This document shows, in pieces, positions 36,784-51,750 of a DNA stretch of 64,000 nt. How positions within the stretch are numbered: position 1 is the first letter of the stretch; every line of letters starts with the position of its first letter. Origin of the DNA: an uncultured Chloroflexia bacterium (lineage in GTDB: Bacteria; Chloroflexota; Limnocylindria; Limnocylindrales; CSP1-4); NCBI GenBank assembly GCA_963734535.1, contig CAVTHS010000008.1, forward strand, positions 352,001 through 416,000, given 5' to 3'. The position numbers and the translations under genes are program-made. The notes beneath the pieces were generated by a model. The model saw nothing but the letters and a program-made list of their open reading frames with translations. It was not told the DNA's origin and searched no databases.

Positions 36784-37323
36784 TCACCCCTTGACGATCT
36801 CGATCCGGTGCGGCACGTGTGCCGGCTTGGCCGTCGAGACCAGCGCCTCCAGGCCCGACGCGGAGAGGCTCGCCGGATCCTTGACCCGAACCCGGATGAA
36901 GAGGTCCTCCGAGGTTCCAGCCGGGATCGGTCCGCCCGCATCGTGCGACCAGGCCGTTGCGCCCGGCTCGGCGATCTCCACCTCGCCGCCGCTGAAGACC
37001 GCGACGTGCGCCGCCAGGCCGCCGACGGTGCCCCGGATCCTGAAGAGATCGACGGCCGACGCCACGAAGGCCCGGCGCCGCTCGATGGGCCAGGTCTCGT
37101 CGAGCGCGGCTCCGGTCCACCCACCCAGCCATTCGAGGAAGTCCTCGGGCGCGAGCGCCGGATCGAGGTAGGCGGGGAAGCAGTCGAGCACCTGGACGAC
37201 ACCCGCCAGCACCTCGTCGAACGCCGCGGTGAGACGCTGGGTCATGTCGTCGTCACGGTAGACGCCCGGGAGATGCTCCCCGAGCGGGTGCGGCGAACGG
37301 AGCCCGGGAATGTGCCCCCGCAT
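36784..37323 (-). CDS. CIS baseplate protein, phage P2 tail-I-like
   Basis: LPGVY...AFDEVLA...[17 protein letters not shown]...RGT...KPAHV. Confidence 0.85.
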
Positions 37324-37327
37324 TGCC

Positions 37328-39277
37328 CTACGCCCCCTCGACGAGGAGCTGGTGCTCGTAGCTGAAGACCAGCGCATGCGGCTCGAGGTCGAGGCGCTGG
37401 GTCACCTGGCCGCGCTGGCCGGTGACAGGGTCCGCCCCGAAGAGACGAACGTCCTCCACGAGCTCCGTCCCGCGCAGCCCCTGGAGCACCGCGTACACCT
37501 CGCCCACCTGGACAGGGCGGCCGAACGGCCAGCCGGTGCCCTCCGGGCCGCCCGTGATCGGGTGGAAGTATCCGTAGATGGCACGCATCGCCTCGTCCTG
37601 GAGGCGCGTGGGGTTGACGCGAGGGCGTGCCCGGAGGCGCGCCACGATCGTGATGCCCCGGTAGGCCGGCGGCTCGACCAGCACGCGCGTGCCGACGACC
37701 CGGCATTCGTCGAGCCGGGCGGCGACCCGCGCGAGCGTCTCATCCGACGGCAGCAGCTGGTCGAAGCGGAGCCGCCCGGCGTCGGCCTCGGCAGCCGGCA
37801 CGACGAGGACGCGGACGGAGCCAGCGTCGACCCCGTCGCCCGCGGCCACGGCGCGCACCCGCGCCAGCTCCGGCGCCGCCTCGAGCGCGATGTGCTCGAA
37901 GTCCTCCGTGGTCACGGCGCGGCCGCGTGTGCGGAGCGAGATCGGGCCGCGCAGCTTCGCGTTCTCGATGTCCTCGCCGTCCACGCCGCCCGCCATGGGC
38001 CGGCGGTTCTCGACCCGGGAGACGTAGGCGATCGAGCTCTTGAGCACGCTGATCGCCCGCGGCGCGAGGTTCCCCTCCCGCCCGCCGCCCGTGAGGTACG
38101 CATCGACGCGGATGCGGGCACCCTTCGGCGGGACTCCGCCGTACTGGCGGACGGTCCCATCCTGCTCGCGGACTGCGGGCCCGAACGAGATCTCGCCCGC
38201 CACGGCATCGAGGACGAAGTGACGGTCGTCCGGCCCGGAGTCGGCGAAGTCCGGGACCTGGGTCCATTCCTGCCAGCCGGCCTCGTCGTCGGAGACGCCG
38301 AGCGTCATGGGCCGGTCGCCGGGCACGATGGGGCGATGCCTGACGGGGAACCGGCCGCCGGCAACGCCCTCCGCCGCGCCGAGAATCTCGTCGACGATCA
38401 CGTCGGCATGCACGGCCGCCGCCGTTCCGCCGATCGTGGCTGCCTCCAGGCCACGCACGTTCGGCGACGCGGAGTAGAAGGGCTGACCTTCCTCCGCTTC
38501 CGTGACACGCGCGCGGACCCAGCCCGCCCGTGTCTTCTCGATCACCGAGGCTGAATGGCCCGCCGGCAGGTGGACGACCACGTCGCCGTCCCGGTTCAGG
38601 CCGCCGGTGGTGTCGAGGTCGAGATCGCAGGCCTCCCAGTCCTCGCCCGTCCAGGCCTCCCAGGCGAGCGGCGGCCACGTTGGGTCCACCCCCACGCCCT
38701 CGATCGTGCACTTGAAGCGCAGCCGGAGCGCGTTCGACGGCGCCGGGTCGGAGAGGCCGATGAGAAGGAGGTCGCCTGGCTTCGGCTGGGTCTCGAACGC
38801 CAGGAAGTCGCGCGCGTTGAGCGCCTCGGTGGTGCGGTCGGCGTACTTCTTCCCATCCGCGGAGGTGAACGCGGCCGTGACCGCGACCGGCACGATCGGG
38901 AGGTCGTCGAGGGTCGTGAAGACGATTGCCTGGTCGGCCTCGGTGCGAATCGTCGCGGCCTGCGTCCCGCCGGGGATGCGGAGCGCCTGCGGCTGCGGGC
39001 CGGAGAGCCAGAACGTGACGTCGCCGCGCGCCGCGGACGGCGGGAAGAGCCGGATCCCGATCAGCTCCAGGAACTTGACGTAGTTGCGGTCCGGGACGCG
39101 ATTGACCCGGTAGAGGAGCTGGTCGGTCATCCAGGCGAAGAGCTCGATCAGGGTCACGCCCGGGTCGGAGACGTTGTGGTCGGTCCACTCGGGGCAGCGC
39201 TGCTGGACGAGCCGCTTCGCGTCGTCGACGAGGTCCTGGAAGCGGCGATCGTCCAGGTTGGGGACCGGCAGGGCCAT
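37328..39277 (-). CDS. CIS baseplate J-like wedge protein (Afp11-like)
   Basis: LPVPNLDDRRFQDLVD...WTDHNVSDPGVTLIELFAW, GGVDGE, RAVTTEDFE, GWPFGR. Confidence 0.93.
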   Translation of the reverse strand: MALPVPNLDDRRFQDLVDDAKRLVQQRCPEWTDHNVSDPGVTLIELFAWMTDQLLYRVNRVPDRNYVKFLELIGIRLFPPSAARGDVTFWLSGPQPQALRIPGGTQAATIRTEADQAIVFTTLDDLPIVPVAVTAAFTSADGKKYADRTTEALNARDFLAFETQPKPGDLLLIGLSDPAPSNALRLRFKCTIEGVGVDPTWPPLAWEAWTGEDWEACDLDLDTTGGLNRDGDVVVHLPAGHSASVIEKTRAGWVRARVTEAEEGQPFYSASPNVRGLEAATIGGTAAAVHADVIVDEILGAAEGVAGGRFPVRHRPIVPGDRPMTLGVSDDEAGWQEWTQVPDFADSGPDDRHFVLDAVAGEISFGPAVREQDGTVRQYGGVPPKGARIRVDAYLTGGGREGNLAPRAISVLKSSIAYVSRVENRRPMAGGVDGEDIENAKLRGPISLRTRGRAVTTEDFEHIALEAAPELARVRAVAAGDGVDAGSVRVLVVPAAEADAGRLRFDQLLPSDETLARVAARLDECRVVGTRVLVEPPAYRGITIVARLRARPRVNPTRLQDEAMRAIYGYFHPITGGPEGTGWPFGRPVQVGEVYAVLQGLRGTELVEDVRLFGADPVTGQRGQVTQRLDLEPHALVFSYEHQLLVEGA

Positions 39278-39280
39278 CGC

Positions 39281-39682
39281 TCACTCCTCCGCGGGGATCA
39301 TGTAGAAGGGAAAGACGAGGTTCCGCGGGTCGTTCGATGACCCGACGGCGTAGCGGATGTCGATGTAGAGGGTCGCGGGCTCGTCGGGGTCGCGCGTGAC
39401 CTCCACCTCGCGCACGTCGATCCGGGGCTCCCAGCGACGAAGCGCGCCTCGAACGTCTGCCGCGATCCGGCCGAACGTGGACGGGTCGATCGCAGCGAAG
39501 ACCTCGTCGTGGATGCCGCACCCGAACTCGGGGCGCATCGGGCGCTCGCCGTAGGCAGTCCCCAGAACGAGCCGGATGCTCTCCTCGATCTCGCGCTCGT
39601 GCGTCACGAGGGCGATCCCGCCGGCAGCGTTGGTCCGGAGCGGGAAGGCCCAGCCGGCGCCGATGAACTCGTCGTTGACCAT
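39281..39682 (-). CDS. GPW/gp25 family baseplate protein (Afp9-like)
   Basis: GAGWAFP, GERPMRPEFGC, WEPRI, RNLVFPFY. Confidence 0.93.
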   Translation of the reverse strand: MVNDEFIGAGWAFPLRTNAAGGIALVTHEREIEESIRLVLGTAYGERPMRPEFGCGIHDEVFAAIDPSTFGRIAADVRGALRRWEPRIDVREVEVTRDPDEPATLYIDIRYAVGSSNDPRNLVFPFYMIPAEE

Positions 39683-39693
39683 GTCCGTCCTCC

Positions 39694-41448
39694 TCAGCCC
39701 AGCGAGACCATGGAGCCCTTGACGGACGTGATGCCGCTGGACTCGAGGGAGAGCTGGCCTTCGCCGCTCACCTTGGTGCTCGCCGGCGAGCTGATCTCGA
39801 CCCCGCCCAGGCCCTTGATCTTCAACGAACCCTGGCAGTCGATCGTGAAGTCGCCCCCGGTCTTCATCTCGACCGTGCCGCTGCCGTCGGCCGTGACCAC
39901 GACCTTCTTGTTGGCGGCGTCCACGTGGATCTGGATCGTCCCGTCGGCCGAGGAGAGCAGGATCCCCTCGCTGCCGGACTCGTCGGAGAAGACCATCTTC
40001 TGGCCGGTCCGGCTGACGAGCTGGCGCGCCTTGAGCTTCTTGTCGCCGTCGATGTCGAACGGCGGCGGCTTGTCGACGCCGTTCCAGAGCCCGCCCAGCA
40101 CGTAGGGCTCGCTGACGTCACCCTGGTGGAACGCCACGAGCACCTCGTCCTGGACCTCGGGGAGCCAGACCAGGCCCCGGTTCGGGCCGTTGCCGGGAGC
40201 GACGACCCTGGCCCAGTCCGTGACGAAGTCGTGCCCGAGGTATGGCAGCTGGACGCGGACCCGCCCGAGGTCCGACGGGTCGGCGTTGTCCGACACGATC
40301 CCGATCTGCACGCCGGCCATGCCGCCACCCTGGCCGCTGCTGCCGCCACTCCCCGTGGTCAGCCCCAGCAGCGTCCGCTCCTGGCGCCCGCTCACCTCGA
40401 ACTGGGTTCGATATCCCTTCTTGTCGAAGATGTGGCGGGTGTGGGTGAGGGTGTAGCTCCCCGCGAAGGGAGCAGCAACCTCGGAGACGCTGACGGTGCT
40501 CCCAGCCTTGAGCTTCGGGTTGCCCGTGGCGGTGCCACTCGCCTCCGCGAATGCGCTGCCGACCTGCTCCGCGAGGGCCTTCGACGCGCTTTCAACCATC
40601 GGCTGCGTCGTGCGCGGCCGGTTCCCGCTCACGTAGCCGGGCAGACCGAAGATCGCGGCGATCGAGGCCGGCGTGTCGGGCAGCTGCACGCTCGTGGTCG
40701 CCGTGGGCTGCTCCGAGGTCAGCTCCGTCCTGCCGGACATGTCCCAGCCCCGAACGGTGACGGTGGCGACCTGGCCCCCTGCGGTCACGCGCGGCCGGAA
40801 CTCCTTCAGGTTCTGCCCGAAGACGAGCTGGAGGGCATTCGTGCTGTTCAGGTCACCGGCGGCCGGGGCGGTGGACGCATCCGGTGGCGGGGCGAAGCTG
40901 AACTTGCCGTCCGTGACCGCGACCTGGAAGCGGCGCTCACGGCCCAGGTCGGTGAGGAACTCCCAGTCGGTCTGGCCCGCCTGCAGGACGTACTCGAGGA
41001 CGTCGCGCGAGTCGGCGATGGTCCCCACCTCGAGGCCCAGGTCGGACGCGATGGTCCGTGCGATGTCCGAGTACTTCACCTGGCGGTAGACGGCCGAGCG
41101 CCTCGCATGCATGAGCCGGTGGCCCTGGTCGTAGCCGCGGACAACGAGCGTCGGTGCCTTGGACTCGTGGTAGACGCCTTCGAGCGCGGTGACCTCGCCC
41201 GTGATGAGGGGCGCCGGCGCGTCATCCTGGAGCGCTCTCCCCGAGATCACGATCTTCGCCCCGACCTTGAGGTGCGCCTTCGTCGCCACGTCCTTGCCCG
41301 GCGTCTCCTGGAAGACGATCTCGAACGTGTCGGGAAGCAGGAGGTGATCGTCCACGGTGACCTGCAGGACGCTGGGCTCCACGGCAGGGTCGAGCGGCTG
41401 ACCATCGACCTCGATCCGGACGGCGGTTGCGATCGGGGAGTCGGGCAT
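39694..41448 (-). CDS. vgrG: VgrG-like spike (Afp8-like)
   Basis: TDWEFL, DPSDLGRVRV, WAR...G...LPEVQDEVLVAF.QGD...PYVLGGLWNG and a beta-helix C-terminus. Confidence 0.92.
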   Translation of the reverse strand: MPDSPIATAVRIEVDGQPLDPAVEPSVLQVTVDDHLLLPDTFEIVFQETPGKDVATKAHLKVGAKIVISGRALQDDAPAPLITGEVTALEGVYHESKAPTLVVRGYDQGHRLMHARRSAVYRQVKYSDIARTIASDLGLEVGTIADSRDVLEYVLQAGQTDWEFLTDLGRERRFQVAVTDGKFSFAPPPDASTAPAAGDLNSTNALQLVFGQNLKEFRPRVTAGGQVATVTVRGWDMSGRTELTSEQPTATTSVQLPDTPASIAAIFGLPGYVSGNRPRTTQPMVESASKALAEQVGSAFAEASGTATGNPKLKAGSTVSVSEVAAPFAGSYTLTHTRHIFDKKGYRTQFEVSGRQERTLLGLTTGSGGSSGQGGGMAGVQIGIVSDNADPSDLGRVRVQLPYLGHDFVTDWARVVAPGNGPNRGLVWLPEVQDEVLVAFHQGDVSEPYVLGGLWNGVDKPPPFDIDGDKKLKARQLVSRTGQKMVFSDESGSEGILLSSADGTIQIHVDAANKKVVVTADGSGTVEMKTGGDFTIDCQGSLKIKGLGGVEISSPASTKVSGEGQLSLESSGITSVKGSMVSLG

Positions 41449-41451
41449 CGC

Positions 41452-42177
41452 TCAGGGCTCCCGAGCGGAGAGCTGCTTGGCCTCGACGACGGACGGCACG
41501 AGGACGCGCGTCCCGGCTGCCATCCGCAGCGGGTCGTCGATCTCGTTGAAGGCGGCGATCCCGCGCCAGAGGTTCGGGTCGCCGTACTCGCGGTAGGCGA
41601 TCCCGGCGAGGCTGTCGCCGTCGTCGAGCACGACACTGCGCCGGCTCTCGCGCGACCCCGATGTCGGGTTCTGCGCCGGCGTCTCCTCCGGGACCTCCTC
41701 GAGGGCGATCGTGCAGCTGGCGCGGATCGGCGTGCCATCCGATTTGAACAGGATGTACTTGGCGGAGACGGACTTCAGGAAGCAGCGGTAGTCCTGGAAG
41801 ATGCGGCTCGCACCCCACTCGAAGCGCAGGATCGGCGGCTGCGGGACGTGGCGGTCCATCGAGGCCCTGGTGGGCTTGGTCCAGTTGAGAAGCGCCTTGA
41901 CGCTCGTCGTGATGTCCGCGTCGGGGCTGTCCCAGGCGTCGAACCAGATCTCCATCTGGACGCTCTGCGGGCCGGCTCCGTGATACTCGGGCCGGCTCGA
42001 CGACCGCGCGCCGCGCGCCGGCGGGCGGTTCCAGTTCGCGGCCTTGCTGGTCGTGATCTCGGCCGGGTTGTACATGAAGCGGAGCTCGCCGACGGGCGCG
42101 CCACCGTCCGCGGGTGCCTGCGGGCCGCCTTCGACCCGCAGGACCGCGTGCTCCAGCTGGCCGCCGCCGTTGAGCAT
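41452..42177 (-). CDS. CIS tube initiator with LysM domain (Afp7-like)
   Basis: FMYNPAEI, PPILRFEWG, LFKSDGTPIRA, QNPTSG, GDSLAGIAYREYGDPNLWRGIA..N.IDDP. Confidence 0.9.
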   Translation of the reverse strand: MLNGGGQLEHAVLRVEGGPQAPADGGAPVGELRFMYNPAEITTSKAANWNRPPARGARSSSRPEYHGAGPQSVQMEIWFDAWDSPDADITTSVKALLNWTKPTRASMDRHVPQPPILRFEWGASRIFQDYRCFLKSVSAKYILFKSDGTPIRASCTIALEEVPEETPAQNPTSGSRESRRSVVLDDGDSLAGIAYREYGDPNLWRGIAAFNEIDDPLRMAAGTRVLVPSVVEAKQLSAREP

Positions 42178-42602
42178 CAGCGCGTGAACCCGTTGTGGAC
42201 GAGCTCGAGGACCTCGAGCGCGACCTGGCTGGTGCCGGTGTCGAGGGTCGGCCCGGTCCACTTGGCGGGGTAGACGCCGGCGAGCTTCCACGAGGTGACC
42301 TTGGTGCCGCCCGAGTCGAGCAGCTCGATCTCCGCGGTGGAGCGCTTCGGGTCGCTCGCGACGGACGCCAGCCACACCGCCACCTTGCCGGTGTCCTTGT
42401 CGATCGGCCGGGTCAGCTTGATGTTCTGGTACTTCGCGCGGCCCGGCACGCGATGGACGAAGTCGTTCTGGCCACCCTCCTTGATCTCCTGGACGTCGTA
42501 CTCGACGGTCAGCCCCTCGCACTTGGTCCAGGCGCCAAGGTCCGTGTGGTCGTCCAGGGTGACCTTGAAGCGAAGGACGAGGCCGTACCCGGGATCGCTC
42601 AT
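42177..42602 (-). CDS. CIS tail tube protein 2 (T4 gp19-like, Afp5-like)
   Basis: CEGL...EGGQNDFVHRVPGR.KY.NIKLTR, W.L..VYPAKWTGP.LD, VALEVLELVH.G. Confidence 0.92.
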   Translation of the reverse strand: MSDPGYGLVLRFKVTLDDHTDLGAWTKCEGLTVEYDVQEIKEGGQNDFVHRVPGRAKYQNIKLTRPIDKDTGKVAVWLASVASDPKRSTAEIELLDSGGTKVTSWKLAGVYPAKWTGPTLDTGTSQVALEVLELVHNGFTR

Positions 42603-42636: not shown

Positions 42637-44985
42637 TCACGCGTCGACCAGCGTCCCGGCGCGCTCGCGGTCCAGGAGGAGCTCTGTCGTCAGGCGGGCA
42701 CGGATCCGGTCGTAGAGCTGGTCCGCGAGCTCCTCGTAGTCGGTGCCGGCGCCTCCCCCGGCCGCCGCCGCCGCTCCGGTCGAGCCGGACTGGCCTGCCG
42801 CGGCGGCGCCCGACTCCCCCGCGCCTGCTCCCCCGCCATCCGGCGTGACCGCAACCTCGTCGATCTGGACGGCACGCTGGACCGACGGGCCAGGGATCGG
42901 GGCGACGCTCGTGAACCCGGCCGCGGATGTCCAGCCGAGCGCCCCGCCAGGTCCGGCCGGGATCGTGTCCGGCCCGGACGCCCAGGACGACCCGGCCGCG
43001 CCGGCCGCCGCGCGCGCCACGGGAAGCGCGGAGAGCACGGCCGACGTCGGGCCTCGACCGGCATCCAGCGCGGCGCGGGAGACGACCGGACGCTCATCCC
43101 GCCGGAGGGCGCCGCCCGGAGCGGACGGGAAGCCCGGATGACCGGTCCACGTGGAGTCGGGGCCCGGGGTGCCGTATGGAGCGCCCCCATCGAACGACGG
43201 GAGCGCGATCCGCGCGATGACGGGCGTCGATTCGTCCACGGCGCGACGTGCCGGGCCGGCGATCGATGCCGTCGGGCCCGAACGCATGGCGCGCGCGGCG
43301 ACCATGGGCGCCATCGCGGGCGTTGCGCTTCTCGTGGCCGACGGTACCGGGGCAGACGATCCGGCTCCGGCCCACGCTGCGGCGGCGCGCTGGACGGCTG
43401 CGACGCCCCCGACCTCGGATCCCCCGCCGCTCGCGGGATCGCGGAGGGAGGCTGTGCTCGTCCATCCGGGTCCCGTCGCGCCAGCCGGCTGGCCCGCGCC
43501 CGGGACAACCGCCGAGCTGCTCGCGCGCTGGAGGGCGCCGACGCCCGGCTCCGCGGGTGCTTCCGCGTCGGACTCCGTGTCCTGGTCCTCCCGGGCAAGG
43601 CGCGCCACACCGATCGGCGACTCGCCCACGAGCGGTCGCACCGGGCGCGGCGCGTCGGGGGCCGTGTCCCCGGGGGACGCGTCGGTGGACGAGTCGACCG
43701 CGACGTCGGAGGGCACCTGCTCGGCCGGCGCAGACGAGCCCAGCCCGGACGAGACGGCCGGCGCAGACGAGCCCGGCGCACCGGATGACGCGGGCGCGGC
43801 GATCGGCGGGATCGCGGCGGTCGTGGTCGCGGACGCCGTCGCCGCGCGCCGCGCGACCACGAGGCGAGGCAGTGGCGAGGACGCGGCCGCGGCCGGGACC
43901 ATGCCCGGCAGCGCGGCCGGGTCCGGGGCCGTCGAGAGCATGGCGTCCCCGGTGCGGGCGCGCCGCATCACCGGCAGGTCGAACCGCGCGGCGTCCCGCG
44001 TCGCCGACGGAGGCGGGCCGACCAGCGGCGCCCCGAGGCCGAGGCGCCGGGACTCCCCGAGCGTCCGCCTCGTGACCGCCTGGGGATGATCGTCGGGTCG
44101 GCTCGGTGCGGCCGGCACCACCTCCGCCAGGTTCGGTCGGGAGCCGGCCGCGGGCTCCCCGGCGGCCTGCCCGCCCGCGGTCGCGTCAGCCGTCGCAGCA
44201 GCCGTCGCCGGCACGGGCGTCGCGGCCGCCGCGTCGCCATGGAGCGGCGATCCGGACGCGATGACCCGGGCCAGCGCCAGGACCGGGAGCGGCGCGCTCG
44301 TAGCGGCAACGCGCGTCGCCGCGATGGCCGGCGTGTCCGCCGCGAGCCGCGCGACGGGCAGCACGCGAAGTCCGGGGCCGGGAGCATCACTCGCCGAGAT
44401 CCCGGATGGCGCGCGGCGCTCGGCTGCGTCGGCTGCTTCGGCTGCGTCGGCTGCTTCGGCGCCCGTTTCGTCCTTGGGCCCGCGGACATCGGGGCCAGCT
44501 TCGAGCCCGGGATCCGCGGCCCCATGCCGTGGCAGCGTGGCCACCGTCGTGACCCCGCGCTGCGCGCTGGGCCGACCGCGCCGTGGAGTCGCCGCGGAAG
44601 GCATCGGCGGCGCGACCCGCGGGTCGGAGCCGGATGGCACGCGCTGGACCAGCGGCACCGTGATGCCGCTCACGAGACCCGCCGGACCGTCGGACGTCAC
44701 GTCGTGGCCGAGCGGCGCCAGGATCGGGTCGGGCGCGCGGCGGCTCGCCAGGTCGCGGGCGAAGGCTGCGCTCGGCGCGGTGAGGGGCGCCGCGCCGACG
44801 GTCCGCTGAACCGGGGCCAGGTCGCGCCAGGCGGAGGGACGCGATTCCACGCGCGGCCCCGGCCCGGGACCCGGCGGCGCGGACAACCCTCCCGCGGGCG
44901 CGGTGGGCGCGGCCTCGGGTGCGCCGGGCGCCGGATCGTCCCGGGCCGGTGCGCCGCGAAGCCAGTTCATGAAGGGCCAGCGCAC
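42637..44985 (-). CDS. Ala/Pro-rich low-complexity CIS protein, candidate tape measure or lumenal cargo
   Basis: Follows the chaperone pair. N-terminal AWRDLAPVQRT...LGH motif, many xQR/xAR motifs, C-terminal helix ELADQLYDRIRARLTTELLLDRERAG. Confidence 0.7.
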   Translation of the reverse strand: MRWPFMNWLRGAPARDDPAPGAPEAAPTAPAGGLSAPPGPGPGPRVESRPSAWRDLAPVQRTVGAAPLTAPSAAFARDLASRRAPDPILAPLGHDVTSDGPAGLVSGITVPLVQRVPSGSDPRVAPPMPSAATPRRGRPSAQRGVTTVATLPRHGAADPGLEAGPDVRGPKDETGAEAADAAEAADAAERRAPSGISASDAPGPGLRVLPVARLAADTPAIAATRVAATSAPLPVLALARVIASGSPLHGDAAAATPVPATAAATADATAGGQAAGEPAAGSRPNLAEVVPAAPSRPDDHPQAVTRRTLGESRRLGLGAPLVGPPPSATRDAARFDLPVMRRARTGDAMLSTAPDPAALPGMVPAAAASSPLPRLVVARRAATASATTTAAIPPIAAPASSGAPGSSAPAVSSGLGSSAPAEQVPSDVAVDSSTDASPGDTAPDAPRPVRPLVGESPIGVARLAREDQDTESDAEAPAEPGVGALQRASSSAVVPGAGQPAGATGPGWTSTASLRDPASGGGSEVGGVAAVQRAAAAWAGAGSSAPVPSATRSATPAMAPMVAARAMRSGPTASIAGPARRAVDESTPVIARIALPSFDGGAPYGTPGPDSTWTGHPGFPSAPGGALRRDERPVVSRAALDAGRGPTSAVLSALPVARAAAGAAGSSWASGPDTIPAGPGGALGWTSAAGFTSVAPIPGPSVQRAVQIDEVAVTPDGGGAGAGESGAAAAGQSGSTGAAAAAGGGAGTDYEELADQLYDRIRARLTTELLLDRERAGTLVDA

Positions 44986-44992
44986 GACGAAC

Positions 44993-45151
44993 TCACTCCT
45001 CTTCGGTCAGGCGCCGGTTGATCCCCGCGATCTCGTCGACGAAGCGGTGCCGGTCCGGGTGCTCCAGGTCGAGGATCTCGTCCATGGACCAGTGAAGGTG
45101 GTAGGCGACGTACGCGACCTCCTCGAAGAGGCGGTCGGCCGCGTACGTCAG
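44993..45151 (-). CDS. DUF6760-like small ORF without ATG/GTG start; probable -1 frameshift extension of the chaperone
   Basis: Manual translation LTYAADRLFEEVAYVAYHLHWSMDEILDLEHPDRHRFVDEIAGINRRLTEEE. Begins CTG, in the -1 frame relative to the upstream gene. Confidence 0.8.
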   Translation of the reverse strand: MTYAADRLFEEVAYVAYHLHWSMDEILDLEHPDRHRFVDEIAGINRRLTEEE

Positions 45152-45585
45152 GATTCCCCCGGCGACGCGCCCCCGATCTCGACGCTGAACTCGTGGCGGC
45201 AGGCCGGACAGGTCACGGACGCCTGGGACGTCCCCTCCTGGTTGACGCGGCGGTAGAGATCCTGGAGGAACGCGAGGTCCGAGGCGAACATCCCCTCGAT
45301 GACCTGCGGCGTGATCATGGGGACGGTCCCCAGCCGGGAAACCACCCGGCTGAGCAGGATCACCGTGAGGTACGCCTCGTTCTCCCGGACGCGCGGATCG
45401 CGCAGCGGGAGGATCTCGTCGCGAGCCGTCGCCAGGCGCATCGCGCCCTCACGGTGGAGGGTGCCCGCGTCGTCGACATAGCCACGCGGCAGGACGAACG
45501 GGAACTCGGTCCGCAGGCCCGCCGGCGCGGGGCCGGACGCGCCGCCGGAGGCGGCTGCCGGCCCCGCGATCAGGTCGAGCGCCAC
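45148..45585 (-). CDS. CIS tail assembly chaperone-like protein
   Basis: TEFPFVLPRGYVD..G.LHREG.MRLATARDEILP..DPRV..N.AYL, DLAFLQDLYRR.N and CPAC. Directly follows the tube gene. Confidence 0.85.
   Translation of the reverse strand: MALDLIAGPAAASGGASGPAPAGLRTEFPFVLPRGYVDDAGTLHREGAMRLATARDEILPLRDPRVRENEAYLTVILLSRVVSRLGTVPMITPQVIEGMFASDLAFLQDLYRRVNQEGTSQASVTCPACRHEFSVEIGGASPGES
45154..45160 (-). other. slippery heptamer G GGG GAA (candidate programmed -1 frameshift site)
   Basis: CCG GGG GAA TCC TGA in frame 0. A -1 slip gives GGA ATC CTG ACG TAC, entering the DUF6760 frame. Confidence 0.65.
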
Positions 45586-45586
45586 G

Positions 45587-46048
45587 TCACTTGATCCGCT
45601 CGAGCCGCTCGCAGACGATCGTGACGCTCTCGACCGACGGCGTGTTGTCCCCGGCCTTCATCCCGGTCGCCTCGAACTTCGAGATCCACGCGTGGAAGAA
45701 GTTGTACCGGGCAACCTCGCCGCCGGCGAAGTCGTACTGGACGATCGAGCCGTCCTTGCGGGCGCCGGTGATGGCGCCGTCGAGGGCAGCCTTGTGCCAG
45801 TTGTAGAGATCCATGCTCGAGTCGGCGGCGCGCTTCAGGGTGATGGTCGGCGGCTTCGTCGCCCCGATCATCTTCTTGAGGATGGGCTTGCCGAGGGCAT
45901 CATTCGCCTTCAGCTCCACGACCTCGATCTCGGAGCTGATGCCGCCCACCTCCTGGAAGGAAGCGATCGTGACGCCCCCGATCTCGATCTTGAAGCGCTG
46001 GGCGACGAGCGAGTCGAAGGGCGTCGCCGAGGGGAGTCCGGCTGCCAT
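45587..46048 (-). CDS. CIS main tail tube protein (T4 gp19-like, Afp1-like)
   Basis: FQEVGGI..E, ITLKR, W...., RKDGSI..YD, RYNF..AW.SK, VESVTIVCE. Confidence 0.92.
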   Translation of the reverse strand: MAAGLPSATPFDSLVAQRFKIEIGGVTIASFQEVGGISSEIEVVELKANDALGKPILKKMIGATKPPTITLKRAADSSMDLYNWHKAALDGAITGARKDGSIVQYDFAGGEVARYNFFHAWISKFEATGMKAGDNTPSVESVTIVCERLERIK

Positions 46049-46098: not shown

Positions 46099-47616
46099 TC
46101 ACTCGCTGAGCGACGTGCCGCCGGAGAACTGGGCGAGGCGGAAGATCACGAACTCGGCCGGCTTCACCGGGGCAACCCCGATGTCGACGATGAGCTGGCC
46201 GGCATCGATCGACTCCGCGGTGTTGTTCTCGCCGTCGCACTTGACGAAGAAGGCTTCGGCCGGCGACGCCCCGAAGAGCGCCCCGTCGCGCCACGTGCGG
46301 ACGAGGAACGACCCGACCGTGCGCTTCACGCGCTCCCAGAGGTCCATGTCGTTCGGCTCGAAGACAACCCACTGCGTCCCGAGCAGGATCGACTCCTCCA
46401 TGTAGTTGAACAGGCGTCGCACGTTGAGGTAGCGCCATGCCGGGTCCGACGAGAGCGTCCGGGCGCCCCAGACGCGGATCCCGCGACCGGGGAAGGTGCG
46501 GATGCAGTTGACCCCGATCGGGTTGAGCTGGTCGTGCTCCGCGCGGGTCAGGTTCAGCTCGAGCGAGATGGCACCCCGCACGATCTCGTTGGCGGGCGCC
46601 TTGTGCACCCCCCGCTCGCCGTCGCTGCGGGCCCAGATGCCGGCCATGTGACCGGACGGCGGCACGAACGCGGCCTGGCCCGCGATCGGATCGAAGACCT
46701 TGATCCACGGCCAGTAGAGCGTGGCGTACTTGGAATCGTAGCCCGCCTTGTCCTGGCGCCACTCCTTGATCTGCTGGGCGTTGTAGTCCGGTGGGGCGTC
46801 GAGGATCGCGACGCGATCGCCCATCAGCTCGCAGTGGGCCATGATCGCGAGCTGGACCGCCTTGACCCCTTCGAGGTCGATGACGCCCCGCTGGTAGAGC
46901 GCCATCAGGTCCGGCGCCGCCACCATCGTGATCTCCTCGACCGCCTCGAGGCCGCCGAACCCGGTCCGGTCCGCGGTGCTCCCAACGTATTCGTCGGGGG
47001 TGACGCGTGCGGGCGTGGCGCTCGTCCCGCCGGCCAGCATCGCCTTCGTCCCGGTGGCGGGGGCGAGGTCGCCCTTCGCGGTCTCCTCCAGGCGGACCAG
47101 CTTCGAGGTCTTCGTCGCGGTGAAGACGTTGTTGCGGCCCTTCTTGAGGCTGACGTTGTCGTAGACCTCGGTCTCGCTGCCGCGCGTCACGACCAGCTTG
47201 AAGACGCCCTCGCCGGGCTCGCCCGGGTCGCTCACCTCGACGGACACGTCGTTGCCGGTGGCGCCCGCGTCGAGCGCGACCACGCGGAAGGCCGCCTGGC
47301 CCTTGTCGGTGGAGCTCGGCAGCTCGAGGCGTGCGGTCGGGGCACCGGCGCCATCGGCGCCGATCCGGACGATGTAGGCGGTCGTGCCCCCGTTGAGGAA
47401 GAACCCGTAGACGGAGTGGGCCAGGTAGGACCCCTCCATGAAGTCGCCGAACGAGGCGACGAACTGGGTCCAGTTCGTGACCATCACCGGCGTGTTGGCG
47501 GGCCCCTTCTGGGCCAGGCCGACGAAGGCCGCGACGGCCGTCCCGACCCCCTCGATCGGGCGCGAGGCGGCCTGGACCTCCTCGACGTAGACGCCGGGCG
47601 AAAGGTAGTTCGGCAT
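46099..47616 (-). CDS. CIS contractile tail sheath protein
   Basis: MPNYLSPGVYVEEV, GFFLNGG, DRVAILDAP, YWPW, PPSGHMAG, GVHKAPANE, VWGARTL, FEPND, APVKPAEFV. Confidence 0.96.
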   Translation of the reverse strand: MPNYLSPGVYVEEVQAASRPIEGVGTAVAAFVGLAQKGPANTPVMVTNWTQFVASFGDFMEGSYLAHSVYGFFLNGGTTAYIVRIGADGAGAPTARLELPSSTDKGQAAFRVVALDAGATGNDVSVEVSDPGEPGEGVFKLVVTRGSETEVYDNVSLKKGRNNVFTATKTSKLVRLEETAKGDLAPATGTKAMLAGGTSATPARVTPDEYVGSTADRTGFGGLEAVEEITMVAAPDLMALYQRGVIDLEGVKAVQLAIMAHCELMGDRVAILDAPPDYNAQQIKEWRQDKAGYDSKYATLYWPWIKVFDPIAGQAAFVPPSGHMAGIWARSDGERGVHKAPANEIVRGAISLELNLTRAEHDQLNPIGVNCIRTFPGRGIRVWGARTLSSDPAWRYLNVRRLFNYMEESILLGTQWVVFEPNDMDLWERVKRTVGSFLVRTWRDGALFGASPAEAFFVKCDGENNTAESIDAGQLIVDIGVAPVKPAEFVIFRLAQFSGGTSLSE

Positions 47617-47650
47617 GCGGATCGGCCCTCCCGGGCTGCGAAGGTAGGGA

Positions 47651-47843
47651 CCGGTCGAGCGTGGCACCGGGGGCACGATCGCGGCAACGGGCGACCGGAC
47701 AGCCGAAGGGGCCGGTCGAGCTGCCCGATGGGGCACCGGGGGCGACCCGATCGGCTGCCCCAGGGCGGCTTGCCGCACGACGGACACCTTGCGAGGCTGA
47801 CCCAGGCGGGTCGACGTGCCCGCGGCCGAATGCGCGCCTGCCC
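47651..47843. promoter_or_regulatory. divergent CIS promoter region with TGCCC/GGGCA boxes
   Basis: Palindrome TGCCC-GATG-GGGCA at 47722-47735 plus four further half-sites. TACCTT -10 for the sheath at 47641-47646. Confidence 0.45.
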
Positions 47844-47906
47844 GGACCCGCGATCGGGGTCGGCCGGCGACCAGCGTCCCGCGACGGACCACCAGGGGTG
47901 CACCGG

Positions 47907-48659
47907 ATGATCGAGGAAGTCGACGAGACGCTTCGGGGCCTGATCCGGACCGAGGTCCTGAGCGGAAGCCAGGTGGAGGTCTCGTTCGACGCCCCCACCA
48001 AGGACTGGGCGTCGCGGCGCAACGCGCCGACGATCAACCTCTACCTCTACGACATCCGCGAGGACCTGTCGCGGCGCGACGCCGCGTGGGCACCGGTGTA
48101 CGCCGCGGAGGGCTACGTCACCGGCCACCAGCCTCCGCCGCGGCACTACAAGCTCCAGTACATGGTCACCGCGTGGACGCAGCGTCCGGAGGACGAACAC
48201 CGGCTCCTCTCCGCGTGCCTCGGGGCGTTCCTCCGCCACGAGACGCTGGGCCCATCCGAGATGACGGGCGCGCTCGCCGAGCAGCCGCTGCCGGCCATGC
48301 TGAGCGTGGGCCTGCCGCTCGGGCCGGACCGCTCCATCGCCGACGTCTGGTCGGCCCTCGGCGGGGAGCTGAAGCCGTCTCTCGACGTCATCTTCAACGC
48401 GCCGTTCGTGGTCGGTCGGAGCCTGTCTGCCGGGGCACCCGTTCGCGAGCTGCCGCGGCTCTCGATCGCCCGTGCCGACGATCGCGGCGAGCCCGAGCGC
48501 CCGGCACGCGCCATGGCGGGCCGCGGGAACGCCTCGGTCCGCCGGAGCAGGCCGCTGTCCCCCGACGAGACGCCCGTTGCCCAGGACGAGACCGTGGTCG
48601 GCGGGACGAAGGCGAAACCCGGACGCACGTACCGGATCCGCGGCTATCCGCGGCCCTGA
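47907..48659 (+). CDS. DUF4255 / Afp16-Pvc16-like tail cap protein
   Basis: VSFDAPTKDW...PTINLYLYDIRED, PPR...L.YMVTAW...EDEHRLL, WSALGGELKPSL. Confidence 0.9.
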   Translation: MIEEVDETLRGLIRTEVLSGSQVEVSFDAPTKDWASRRNAPTINLYLYDIREDLSRRDAAWAPVYAAEGYVTGHQPPPRHYKLQYMVTAWTQRPEDEHRLLSACLGAFLRHETLGPSEMTGALAEQPLPAMLSVGLPLGPDRSIADVWSALGGELKPSLDVIFNAPFVVGRSLSAGAPVRELPRLSIARADDRGEPERPARAMAGRGNASVRRSRPLSPDETPVAQDETVVGGTKAKPGRTYRIRGYPRP

Positions 48660-48682
48660 CCGTCCATGACCGGCGGCCCAGC

Positions 48683-50770
48683 ATGACCCTCGCGTCCCCC
48701 GTCACCGACGCGTCCGTCCGCCACCTTGCCGCTCGACTCGAGCTGGTCGAGGCCCGGATCCGGGTCGCGGTCGCTCGCCGGCGGGCCACCGACCCCGACC
48801 CCGACGACCGGTTCCGGGGCCTCTACGTCTCCGACGTGCAGGTCGACGAGATGCTGGCCGGCGCGCCCGTGCCACTCCTGCCCGCGGCCCCCGACGCGGA
48901 GGCGACGGCGCGGCTGGAGGCCATCGAGGCGGGCGCGGACGCGGCCGAGGCGGCGGGGGTCGACGTGCGACTGCGCCGGCTGATCCGGTCGTTCGCGCTC
49001 GAGCAGCTCGACGTGGAGCTCCTGCTCGTCGCGCTGGCGCCGGACCTCGACCCGCGCTTCGAGCGGCTCTACGGCTACCTCCACGACGATGTCTCGCGCC
49101 GACGGGCGAGCATCGGCCTGGCCCTGGAGCTGGTCGGTGCAGGCGGCGCGTCGGGCGCCGGCCGGGCGCGGCTCGGGCCGTCGGGACCGCTCATCGCGGG
49201 CGGGCTGCTGATCGTCGAGGACGTCGACCGGCCCTTCCTGACACGTGCGCTCCGCGTGCCGGACCGCGTCGCCGGCCATCTCGTCGGCGACGACACGACC
49301 GATCCGCTCGTGGCCGCCCTCGAGGTGACGCCGTCCGGGAGGGATCTCGCGGGCGCCGAGCCGCTGGAGCGCGGCCTGCGCGCAGGGGCGCGCCTCGCGT
49401 ATGTCCGCGAGCGCATCGGCACGGCCCCGCTCACCGTGGCCGCCCGCGCGCTGGCGCGCCTCGGGCCGCCGCCCATCGTCGTCGACCTGGGCCGCCTGGG
49501 GCCGCACGAGGAGATCGGGGAAGCGGCGACGGCCGCGATCCGCGAGGCACGGCTCCGCGGCGCCGGCCTGCTGGCGGGTCCCGTCGAGGTGCTCGCAGAA
49601 CGGGGCGCCGCTGCCGTCCGCGCCTTCGCGGAAGCCGGCTGCGTGACCGTGCTGCACGGCGCGCGCGGCTGGGATCCCGCCTGGTCGCGAACGGTCGCCT
49701 TCCTCGTCGAGGCGGAGCTCCCGACGGCGACCGAGCGCCGCGACGTCTGGCTGGCCGCCCTGGACGGGTCGGCGTCGGACGAGATGGCGGCGGCGATCGC
49801 CGCGCTCCCCTACCGGCTGGCGCCCGAACAGGTCGAACGCGCAGCCGAGGCGGGCCGCCTCACCGCGGCGGCATCCGGCCGGGCGGTGGGCGTCGCGGAC
49901 GTCGCGGCCGGCGCTCGATCCCAGAACGCGGCCGGCCTGGATCGCCTCGCGCGCCGGATCGATCCGCGCGTCGGCTGGGCGGACCTGGTCCTGCCGGCTC
50001 CGGTCGTGGAGCAGCTCGGCGAGCTGACCGCGCGGGCGCGCCACCGCGACCGCGTCCTCGATGATTGGGGACTCGCCCGCACGTCGCTCAAGGGACGTGG
50101 CGTGACTGCCCTGTTCGCGGGCGACTCCGGCACGGGCAAGACCATGTCGGCGGAGGTGATCGCCCGGTCGCTCGGCCTGGACCTCTACGTGATCGACCTC
50201 TCGACGATCGTGGACAAGTACATCGGCGAGACCGAGAAGAACCTGGACCGCGTCTTCAACGAGGCCGACCGGGTCAACGGCGTCCTCCTCTTCGACGAGG
50301 CCGATGCGATCTTCGGCAAGCGCTCGGAGGTGAAGGACGCCCGCGACCGCTATGCGAACGTGGAGGTTGCCTACCTGCTCCAGCGGATGGAGGTGTTCGA
50401 CGGGATGGCGATCCTCACCACGAACCTCCGCGCCAACGTGGACGAGGCGTTCCTGCGCCGGCTCGACGCGATCGTCGAGTTCCCGGTACCCGACGTCGAC
50501 GATCGCCGGCGCCTCTGGGAACGCAACCTCCCCGGGGCGCTCCCGACGACGGACGACATCGACCTCGACTTCCTGGCGCGCCGCTTCACGCTCTCGGGCG
50601 GGAACATCCGGAACGTGGCGGTGGGCGCCGCCTTCCGCGCCGCCGAGGGCGAACGGCGCGTGGCCATGGCCGACCTGGTCCGGGAGACGGCCCGGGAGTA
50701 TCGCAAGCTGGGCCGCCTCTGCGTGGAGGCCGAGTTCGGCTCGTGGTTCGGCGTGGTCGCGAGCGCCTGA
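48683..50770 (+). CDS. CIS AAA+ ATPase (Afp15-like)
   Basis: DLDPRFERLYGYLHDDVSRRR, FAGDSGTGKT, DKYIGETEKNL, FDEADAIFGKRSEVKDARDRYAN. Confidence 0.95.
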   Translation: MTLASPVTDASVRHLAARLELVEARIRVAVARRRATDPDPDDRFRGLYVSDVQVDEMLAGAPVPLLPAAPDAEATARLEAIEAGADAAEAAGVDVRLRRLIRSFALEQLDVELLLVALAPDLDPRFERLYGYLHDDVSRRRASIGLALELVGAGGASGAGRARLGPSGPLIAGGLLIVEDVDRPFLTRALRVPDRVAGHLVGDDTTDPLVAALEVTPSGRDLAGAEPLERGLRAGARLAYVRERIGTAPLTVAARALARLGPPPIVVDLGRLGPHEEIGEAATAAIREARLRGAGLLAGPVEVLAERGAAAVRAFAEAGCVTVLHGARGWDPAWSRTVAFLVEAELPTATERRDVWLAALDGSASDEMAAAIAALPYRLAPEQVERAAEAGRLTAAASGRAVGVADVAAGARSQNAAGLDRLARRIDPRVGWADLVLPAPVVEQLGELTARARHRDRVLDDWGLARTSLKGRGVTALFAGDSGTGKTMSAEVIARSLGLDLYVIDLSTIVDKYIGETEKNLDRVFNEADRVNGVLLFDEADAIFGKRSEVKDARDRYANVEVAYLLQRMEVFDGMAILTTNLRANVDEAFLRRLDAIVEFPVPDVDDRRRLWERNLPGALPTTDDIDLDFLARRFTLSGGNIRNVAVGAAFRAAEGERRVAMADLVRETAREYRKLGRLCVEAEFGSWFGVVASA

Positions 50771-50826
50771 GATGGAGACGCACCGGCGGCACGCGCGGCC
50801 GAGCAGGGATTGACGGGAGCGGGACG

Positions 50827-51750
50827 ATGTCAGACGACGCCACGGCCATGCGGGAGGACGCGAGCATGCACCGCCACGAGCACGAGCGGGAGACGCCGCC
50901 ACGCCGCCCGATCCGGCGCTCCGGCGATGAAGCCGCCGCGACGGCGCTCGCGGCCCGGGCCGCTGCCGCAGGACGAACGGACGCGCTCGGCCCGGCTTCG
51001 GTCCTGCGCCTCCAGCGTGCGGCGGGCAATGCCGGTGTCGCCGGACTCTTCGATGGCGCGTCGGAGCCGGAATCGCCGGTGAAGGACGTGGTCGGCCGTG
51101 GAGGCGGAGCCCCGCTCGCGCCCGCCGTCCGGGAGCGCATGGAGTCGAGCTTCGGGACCGACTTCTCCGACGTCCGGGTCCACAGCGGCGGGGGCGCGGC
51201 GGCGTCGGCCCGCGCCGTCGATGCGCACGCCTACACCGTCGGCAACGAGATCGTCCTGGGCGACGGCCACGCCGAGGGCTCGTCGGCGCACGAGCGGACG
51301 CTGGCCCACGAGCTGACCCACGTGGTCCAGCAGCGATCCGGGCCCGTGGATGGCACCCCCGCCCCCGGCGGGATCTCGGTCAGCAGCCCGAGCGATCGCT
51401 TCGAGCGCGCCGCCGAGACGACCGCCGATCAGGTCATCTCGACGGGACGAGCCGGCGACGGCGCGGGACACGCAGCACCGGCGATCCAGCGCGAGGCCGC
51501 CCCCGAGGATGAGAACGAGGTCCAGGAGCTCGCGATCCAGCGTCGCGACGAGTCGGAGGACGTGCCGGACGAGGTGCCGACGCCCGGGGATGAGCCGCAC
51601 GACGTCCAGCGGCCCGAGGAAGGGCCGGCGCCGGCCGGCGCTTCGGAGGTCCAGCGGCCCGAGGAGGAACAGGACGAGGTCCAGCAGCTCGCGATCCAGC
51701 GCCGGGCCTCGCGGCGGACGGGTGGCGGGGCCGCGGCTGGGCAGCTGTAG
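50827..51750 (+). CDS. DUF4157 (eCIS core domain) protein with acidic QR-repeat tail
   Basis: LQRAAGN, MESSFGTDFSDVRVH, AHAYTVG..I, LAHELTHVVQQ, S.PSDRFE..A. Confidence 0.9.
   Translation: MSDDATAMREDASMHRHEHERETPPRRPIRRSGDEAAATALAARAAAAGRTDALGPASVLRLQRAAGNAGVAGLFDGASEPESPVKDVVGRGGGAPLAPAVRERMESSFGTDFSDVRVHSGGGAAASARAVDAHAYTVGNEIVLGDGHAEGSSAHERTLAHELTHVVQQRSGPVDGTPAPGGISVSSPSDRFERAAETTADQVISTGRAGDGAGHAAPAIQREAAPEDENEVQELAIQRRDESEDVPDEVPTPGDEPHDVQRPEEGPAPAGASEVQRPEEEQDEVQQLAIQRRASRRTGGGAAAGQL

Follow-up and report, generated by a model that had tools for sequence, protein, structure and literature searches.

A conserved slippery heptamer and a putative −1 ribosomal frameshift between a tail assembly chaperone and DUF6760 in bacterial contractile injection systems

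The sequence analyzed here is a stretch of 64,000 nucleotides (nt) from an uncultured Chloroflexia bacterium (Limnocylindrales, CSP1-4; CAVTHS010000008.1, positions 352,001–416,000), referred to below as the window, and carries what sequence comparison identifies as a Streptomyces-type contractile injection system (CIS) with two divergent arms. Within this locus, the gene of a tail assembly chaperone (G) is overlapped in the −1 frame by a second reading frame which encodes a DUF6760 domain (T). Judging from the sequence at this overlap and its relatives, it is likely that a −1 ribosomal frameshift makes a chaperone–DUF6760 fusion of about 196 amino acids (aa). A slippery heptamer in the correct phase before the stop codon of G was found at 148 of 150 distinct chaperone–DUF6760 junctions, compared with 35 of 1,637 background open reading frame (ORF) ends.

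Sequence of the chaperone–DUF6760 overlap

The chaperone gene encodes 145 aa when read from the GTG at 45585 (45148..45585, minus strand), with a true start possibly slightly downstream of this codon, and ends CCG GGG GAA TCC TGA, its TGA stop lying at 45150..45148. The heptamer G GGG GAA is located at 45160..45154, in phase with the zero-frame codons GGG GAA and 3 nt before the TGA. From this G-run the DUF6760 frame extends for 55 codons plus a stop (44993..45160, minus strand; PF20546, E 1.5e-14). Its first ATG, GTG or TTG is an internal ATG 65 nt past the chaperone stop, and a CTG overlaps that stop (CTGA). This confirms the arrangement described in an original prediction made from the letters of the window, which had also placed the pair correctly between the tube gene (45587..46048, minus strand; Pfam Phage_T4_gp19, E 2.4e-28) and a long protein (a 782-aa ORF at 42637..44985, minus strand). 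The fusion size given there, about 197 aa, was near the value of about 196 aa obtained from GTG 45585 without matching it.

The heptamer at the chaperone end is more than a chance occurrence, because the motif is depleted in the window and rare at ORF ends genome-wide. GGGGGRR is present in 11 copies on the two strands of the window against 90 ± 12 in dinucleotide-preserving shuffles, an eight-fold depletion, and of 1,637 coding-like ORFs in the window's own genome five, G included, have it in phase among their final 12 codons. The 35 background ends mentioned above are those of the same genome with any in-phase X XXY YYZ heptamer. It was also observed that three of the 11 copies cluster near the 3′ end of the gene for the long protein (42753..42834). 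Elsewhere in this genome, an ORF of 240 codons (contig C8, 119681..120403, minus strand) has an in-phase GGGGGGG 6 nt before its stop, with the following −1 frame open for 485 codons; this may simply be an overlapping next gene.

Under the proposed mechanism, most ribosomes would stop at the TGA and yield G alone, with a fraction slipping one base back on G GGG GAA. The P-site tRNA-Gly would re-pair perfectly on GGG and the A-site tRNA-Glu would re-pair on GGA with one G:U pair, the slip being helped by a predicted hairpin of 14 base pairs (bp) that begins 3–4 nt downstream. Slipped ribosomes would then read through DUF6760 to give the G–T fusion. Both the occurrence of slippage and its efficiency are inferred from these signals. 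One detail of the original prediction needs correction, in that its junction peptide carried a Gly where classical tandem slippage gives Glu. According to the cited part of the PRFect paper, the ‘five-two’ slip motif takes the form GGGGGAA throughout about a thousand annotated frameshifts of actinobacteriophages, with a G:U pair accounting for how the A-site tRNA re-pairs on GGA (PMC10885494). The tail assembly genes of corynephage phi16 are described, likewise in the part of the paper cited here, as having an internal Shine-Dalgarno sequence, GGGGGAA and a pseudoknot (PMC5506516). The use of this heptamer by phage chaperone genes, as first suggested, is thus borne out for actinobacteriophages, in which it is the standard slip site of such genes. 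A further paper, in the portion cited, has GGGGGAA only among listed ribosome-binding sites and was set aside as irrelevant (PMC3091744).

Conservation of the junction across loci

A total of 160 loci from several phyla were fetched in five samples: 15 from the genus of the window, 30 found by DUF6760 in 401 genomes of the phylum, 80 found by the chaperone only with one genome per species (set C; at least 595 exist), 14 found by the chaperone in IMG/VR, and 23 found by DUF6760 in two further draws of the phylum with 301 genomes each. Removal of five duplicates, four G genes with no adjacent T and one locus with no match to the G profile left 150 junctions, which were counted with a profile-anchored script. 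The four G genes with no adjacent DUF6760 comprise three on near-identical low-GC contigs and an odd third copy in one genome. On the three contigs, from IMG/VR (L134, L135 and L136), no DUF6760 follows the chaperone homolog, which is the final gene ahead of a terminator-like hairpin; this absence can be judged only for L134, which reaches about 1 kb beyond.

All 150 junctions showed the −1 phase. An in-phase GGGGGRR (NNG GGG GRR) was present in 144 of them, in the forms GGGGGAA (97), GGGGGGG (30), GGGGGGA (16) and GGGGGAG (1), and in 140 of these 144 it ended 0 or 3 nt before the stop. Another in-phase heptamer stood in its place at four junctions (G GGA AAA, C CCT TTA, C CCG GGG and A AAT TTT), and the remaining two (L149 and L155) had no heptamer and an ATGA start. 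No junction among the 150 lacked both a heptamer and a start codon. Taken by itself the phase is weak evidence and does not discriminate, since any start codon that overlaps the stop (NTGA) necessarily lies in the −1 frame; the heptamer and its substitutes do discriminate. Alignment of junctions across CIS loci for conservation of heptamer and phase was the check proposed with the original prediction, and its outcome is positive. The genomes behind three of the junctions (L024, L140 and L147) are flagged as unpublished. If these three are left out, 147 junctions remain, all in the −1 phase, 141 with a G-run and 47 with no start codon for DUF6760, and no claim made here depends on the three.

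The same junction was found in complete genomes of cultured Streptomyces, and signal-bearing CIS loci span Chloroflexota, Actinomycetota, Acidobacteriota and others. A conserved peptide of the −1 frame (GG, I/V, a hydrophobic residue, then Y...) starts exactly at the two glycines of the G-run, with nothing conserved in this frame upstream of it. In several loci the −1 frame has stops 1–4 codons ahead of the heptamer, and entry must therefore be at the heptamer.

RNA hairpin following the heptamer

The predicted hairpin of the window occupies 45106..45150 on the minus strand, with arms at 45150..45137 and 45119..45106 and a loop at 45136..45120, and has a z of −2.35 against dinucleotide shuffles. 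Across the family a stem was detected 3–5 nt past the heptamer in almost every locus, in two sequence registers. In the first, termed T-Y-A, GACGTACGCG pairs with CGCGTACGTC, and in the second, termed G-Y-P, GGCTACC pairs with GGTAGCC. The G-Y-P pairing needs the rare Val codon GTA, which is used in 16 of 18 cases compared with 29 of 1,152 in the background, while the T-Y-A group has GTC as the Val codon at this place in 35 of 39 cases and GTA never; eleven loci that did not match the pattern were left out of this count.

Covariation was examined in both registers, the structures having been derived from the same, related sequences as those tested. In the 78 T-Y-A sequences 89.7% of cells were paired, against 11–45% when the partner strand was slid, and double changes were found in 22 cells over five pairs where shuffles gave 4.6 ± 1.8 (0/500). 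In the 15 G-Y-P sequences 90% of cells were paired, against 33–65% when slid, with double changes in four pairs (3/500 shuffles). Some of the compensations alter both amino acids (T-Y-P with G-Y). Stem energy also exceeded what the peptide constrains, with a mean z of −1.55 and 81% of values below −1 for 106 loci compared with synonymous-resampled controls. In a small sample of three loci with an ATG start, of which two have no heptamer and one has GGGGGGC, no comparable stem was formed, the energies being −16.4, −12.1 and −8.6 kcal/mol versus −28.5, −21.3 and −26.4 kcal/mol. At the level of sequence the hairpin is supported by covariation and by rare-codon use. It had no part in the original prediction, and it adds support to the frameshift.

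A second sequence feature was observed on the other side of the heptamer. An internal Shine-Dalgarno stimulator has been described for dnaX, and a GG-rich pentamer (GGTGG, GGGAG or GGCGG) which lies 7–11 nt before the heptamer in the T-Y-A group, at about 45167..45171 in the window, recalls such a stimulator as found in phi16. This pentamer also encodes Gly-Gly and is not conserved in the G-Y-P group.

Identity of the upstream protein

All 22 aligned relatives of G matched the PHROG 508 family, ‘tail assembly chaperone’ (best E 1.1e-09; E 3.3e-07 for the protein of the window), which was the sole family at E ≤ 0.001 across the 22. By these matches, the 145-aa gene is a phage-type tail assembly chaperone. 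A Pfam scan of the window's G gave no match at E 0.01, and sub-threshold echoes of Phage_TAC_7 and Gp41_Mu appeared in three and two of the 22 relatives, respectively. The family comprises 1,279 representatives at E ≤ 0.001. The nearest relatives are in Chloroflexota (‘Candidatus Limnocylindrales’) assemblies, and copies with 58–71% identity occur in many Streptomyces, Micromonospora and other Actinomycetota. A tblastn search of G against 50,697 phage records returned no match, with no cultured-phage homolog at E ≤ 0.01. It should also be noted that 11 of the 150 best family representatives are ‘double chaperone’ tandems of 210–417 aa with two G domains (P0022–P0026, P0028, P0029, P0032, P0037, P0050 and P0116).

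Start codons of DUF6760 and alternative explanations

A canonical start codon for DUF6760 is absent in the window and in 47 of the 150 junctions (no ATG, GTG or TTG in the interval that opens 30 nt ahead of the stop and closes at profile position 8) and present in the other 103. The alternative that has to be weighed first, and which is considered unlikely, is that DUF6760 is made only as a separate protein. Ribosomes would re-initiate at the codon overlapping the chaperone stop (GTG or ATG in most loci, CTG or ATC in the window), with the G-run acting as a Shine-Dalgarno sequence and the hairpin masking the start until melted by the upstream ribosome.

Several observations count for this alternative and against frameshifting. 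A GTG or ATG overlaps the stop (NTGA) in 97 of the 150 junctions, mostly as GTGA, which is also the form in most Streptomyces, and six more have another canonical start nearby. Among 45 start-less loci examined, 41 have a near-cognate codon (CTG, ATH), these being frequent partly because the heptamer's own A plus a T makes an Ile codon. The G-run is Shine-Dalgarno-like and lies 4 nt ahead of the V/L codon at the start position, the hairpin covers this GTG/CTG codon in a manner that would also suit translational coupling, and the Pfam model begins at about the stop-overlapping codon. Loci L149 and L155, with an ATGA start only and no heptamer, show that the DUF6760 domain can work unfused. The hairpin evidence has its own difficulties: the spacer of 3–5 nt is short, RNAalifold prefers another pairing for the G-Y-P group, that of the G-run with CCCCC, and a hairpin of at least 9 bp was formed in 103 of 106 real loci and also in 85% of synonymous-resampled controls, for which reason the presence or absence of a hairpin was rejected as a test. 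The counts from the 150 junctions overstate independence, as the loci are related and were probably spread by transfer, and set C is mostly Streptomyces. Finally, a structure model of G (pLDDT 68.5) gave no Foldseek match at E ≤ 0.001 against viral models and the PDB, the best viral match having an E of 0.039 and a TM of 0.19.

Against exclusively separate synthesis stand the 47 start-less junctions, with four of the 45 loci checked lacking a near-cognate codon too. Across the family the stop-overlapping codon behaves like a sense codon, specifying V, L, I, A or M, and within the genus of the window it flips between GTG (eight loci) and CTG (seven loci) with the heptamer kept in 15 of 15. Conservation of the peptide sets in at the G-run, two to three codons ahead of that codon. 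The substitutes CCCTTTA and AAATTTT are slippery but not Shine-Dalgarno-like, a ribosome-binding site needs no strict heptamer phase, and the loci with a true ATG are those without the hairpin. These last loci (L149, L155 and L152) form a divergent DUF6760 subfamily in which the ATG overlaps or follows the chaperone stop, with GGGGGGC at the heptamer position of L152, and here, from the sequence, DUF6760 seems to be made unfused. The original prediction had held that DUF6760 is made mainly as a fusion, which agrees with the window and the 47 start-less loci and has to be qualified for the 97 junctions where free DUF6760 may also arise. In many lineages the frameshift probably coexists with separate initiation of DUF6760.

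A second alternative, regarded as very improbable, is slippage of RNA polymerase on the G-run, by which some mRNAs with one base more or fewer would encode the fusion. Homopolymer runs of 5–7 G and the existence of fused-looking proteins in databases are in line with this idea. However, the run in the window is no longer than five G, none of the substitute heptamers is a homopolymer, and a strict codon phase, as seen in 148 of 150 junctions, marks a ribosomal process. The fused-looking database entries are themselves isolated and faulty: the longer DUF6760 proteins number 19, all singletons, and of 12 inspected most carry extra frame errors. Six metatranscriptome runs from four studies contain the stretch, and RNA-library contigs from three studies (X15, X19 and X20) cross the junction with no indel. 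This argues weakly against polymerase slippage, as such contigs drop rare variants and come from libraries not proven to be RNA-only, and they show presence and bridging only. The only change seen within the heptamer in RNA contigs was AA to GG (45154..45155), which turns GGGGGAA into GGGGGGG, both of them slippery. The GGGGGGG form was present in soil and peat RNA contigs of related strains, in X17 at 157.7 of a depth of 190.2 and in X19, and the two forms also alternate within the genus of the window.

The last alternative, a sequencing or assembly error or a recent mutation that split one gene or broke the start of DUF6760, might be raised for a 14-contig assembly of 90% completeness with an error-prone homopolymer, but for practical purposes it is excluded by the comparative sequence data, the same two-frame layout being present in 150 of 150 junctions, complete cultured Streptomyces genomes included, and both domains sharing one frame in only five of the 150 best family representatives, which look error-ridden. 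These five in-frame fusions were not counted as evidence on account of their extra frame errors. On the sequences at hand, hard-wired G–DUF6760 fusions are rare or absent, as in phages.

DUF6760 and the long protein encoded downstream

The DUF6760 of the window scored 54.3 bits against a gathering cut-off of 27 (53.6 bits in the genome scan). Its structure was modeled as a three-helix domain with a pLDDT of 89.2, the first seven residues, which correspond to the junction, being predicted as unstructured. No match at E ≤ 0.001 was obtained for this model among viral structures. Close superpositions on small myovirus proteins were not significant and serve as a lead only; one ‘tape measure chaperone’ and two ‘tail assembly chaperone’ entries were among the top 16 structural matches, none of them significant. 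PHROG 10636 was matched by nine of 22 DUF6760 members and PHROG 1756 ‘tail protein’ by five of 22. One genome (G437) has three copies of DUF6760 (L145, L158 and L160) and hence probably several CIS loci. The copy in L160, possibly decayed, scores below the Pfam cut-off, and its DUF6760 match is placed 167 nt upstream of the chaperone stop as computed.

Since such chaperone pairs normally act on the product of the following gene, the 782-aa protein is implied as a tape-measure-like partner. Its gene has the position of a tape measure gene, directly following the chaperone pair and preceding the hub and baseplate genes. The protein matched none of the families in Pfam, PHROGs and NCBIfam, which places it in no tape measure family, and in a protein atlas it falls into unnamed clusters only. 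Its first 700 residues contain 10–19% Pro and 18–31% Ala. The ORF that follows DUF6760 in the window and in other loci (L045–L122) represents a conserved unannotated family. Members, of 430 to over 1,279 aa, have a body rich in Pro, Ala and Gly whose length differs widely, with a W..LPP.QR motif inside the protein, and are conserved over a short stretch at the N-terminus and, strongly, in a C-terminal helix that ends in ...DRER.G.

If the pair works as lambda gpG/gpGT and P2 gpE/gpE+E′ do, this long protein would be held by the three-helix domain of DUF6760 and tube subunits would be recruited by the G part, with the result that the tube would be built around the long protein. This binding partner of DUF6760 is an inference from the lambda and P2 paradigm. 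It is further suggested, tentatively and with somewhat more doubt than belief, that the long protein is the ‘missing’ length ruler or a lumen-filling cargo of class IId CIS, including CIS-Sc, loaded by the G/G–T pair in a ratio set by the frameshift and gripped by DUF6760, most likely at the conserved C-terminal helix. A ruler of this composition would measure as an extended, largely non-helical chain, unlike the helical tape measures of phages.

Comparison with known systems

The −1 frameshift of tail assembly chaperone genes, of which lambda gpG/gpGT is the model, is reportedly conserved, as Levin in 1993 and Xu, Hendrix and Duda in 2004 are said to have described. The locus of the window resembles the lambda pair in its two overlapping frames between the tube gene and a long next gene, in a first frame whose stop is preceded within a few codons by an in-phase slippery heptamer, in the chaperone homology of the upstream protein and, in the window and the 47 start-less junctions, in an extension with no start of its own. 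It differs in that it belongs to a chromosomal injection machine and not a virus, that the extension is of the DUF6760 family, that two thirds of the loci also have a stop-overlapping start, and that the partner is not a recognizable tape measure protein. P2 gpE/gpE+E′ and Mu gp41 are chaperones of contractile tails. They share with the present system a contractile tail-type machine and the weak, below cut-off similarity of G to Phage_TAC_7 and Gp41_Mu given above, although this sequence similarity is marginal.

The frameshifts of actinobacteriophages, in the part of PMC10885494 cited here, have the identical GGGGGAA, with tRNA-Glu likewise re-pairing on GGA through a G:U pair, and for phi16 a downstream RNA structure is likewise described in the cited part of PMC5506516, a pseudoknot in place of the hairpin predicted here. 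Those are siphophage genes in phage genomes, whereas the present loci are bacterial CIS.

The closest described relatives are CIS-Sc of S. coelicolor and SLP of S. lividans, of class IId, a label which is taken here from the Streptomyces CIS papers and not from a classifier. They have the same type of cluster and the same junction, with a G of 58–71% identity. The chaperone of S. coelicolor is presumably sco4251, going by gene order. The cited portions of the Streptomyces CIS papers mention sco4251 solely as a protein without known function that was recovered in a purification. Those portions of the CIS-Sc and SLP papers (PMC10066040, PMC10020575, PMC12237407, PMC10286715) and of the effector papers (PMC11126660, PMC13277306) name no chaperone or frameshift for this slot. 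A tape measure gene is stated there to be absent from Streptomyces CIS (PMC12237407, PMC10066040, PMC10286715); in the words of one of these papers ‘the corresponding gene is absent’, yet all CIS-Sc particles are described as having the same length (PMC12237407). As far as the cited parts of the effector papers go, the tape-measure-related Streptomyces CIS effectors Tme and Sle1 resemble the 782-aa protein as long, largely disordered proteins encoded just upstream of baseplate genes; Tme differs by carrying DUF4157 and a nuclease domain where the 782-aa protein has no recognized domain, and Sle1 has its gene upstream of that for the sheath (PMC11126660, PMC13277306).

A literature search found no paper on DUF6760 and no description of a chaperone frameshift in CIS or tailocins, and the examined papers that join contractile injection with ribosomal frameshifting concern phage SPP1 in the parts considered. 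The view in the original prediction that this was undescribed for CIS therefore agrees with the search. The mechanism is textbook for tailed phages and, in CIS, seems to have been overlooked.

Gene neighborhood of the locus

The assignment to the Streptomyces-type CIS follows from the presence of sheath, tube, spike, gp25, baseplate J, AAA ATPase and eCIS-core genes, with closest relatives of the Streptomyces type. The chaperone–DUF6760 pair, the tube, sheath, spike and baseplate genes and the 782-aa ORF are all on the minus strand, with the ATPase/eCIS-core arm on the plus strand. The order of tube, G, T and the long ORF was the same in the loci examined. The sheath gene (46099..47892; PHROG 23 tail sheath, E 5.8e-87; Pfam Phage_sheath_1 and Phage_sheath_1C) lies on the far side of the tube gene. 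Beyond the long protein's gene are those of a CIS_tube-domain protein, tube initiator or hub-like (41452..42522; PF19266, E 3.3e-23), a VgrG/gpD-like spike (39694..41448; Pfam Phage_base_V and Phage_GPD) and, by family matches, gp25-like baseplate (39281..39682), Baseplate_J (37328..39277) and Tail_P2_I (36784..37377) proteins. The divergent arm has, by domain matches, an AAA ATPase with a winged-helix domain (47816..50770, plus strand) and an eCIS-core (DUF4157) protein (within 50065..51750, plus strand); the ORF limits in this arm (47816..51750) are given as listed and overlap.

Implications

If the proposed frameshift is true, an unannotated protein of about 196 aa would be made from hundreds of CIS loci, including those of the Streptomyces model systems. 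DUF6760 would gain a function, and many of its annotated start codons would be secondary or wrong. The puzzle of class IId systems with ‘no tape measure’ would become testable by ordinary experiments, and if the ruler reading of the long protein also holds, its variation from 430 to over 1,279 aa predicts different particle lengths between species. In the engineering of CIS as delivery devices, the yield could be limited if an assembly factor is lacking or the G:GT ratio is disturbed.

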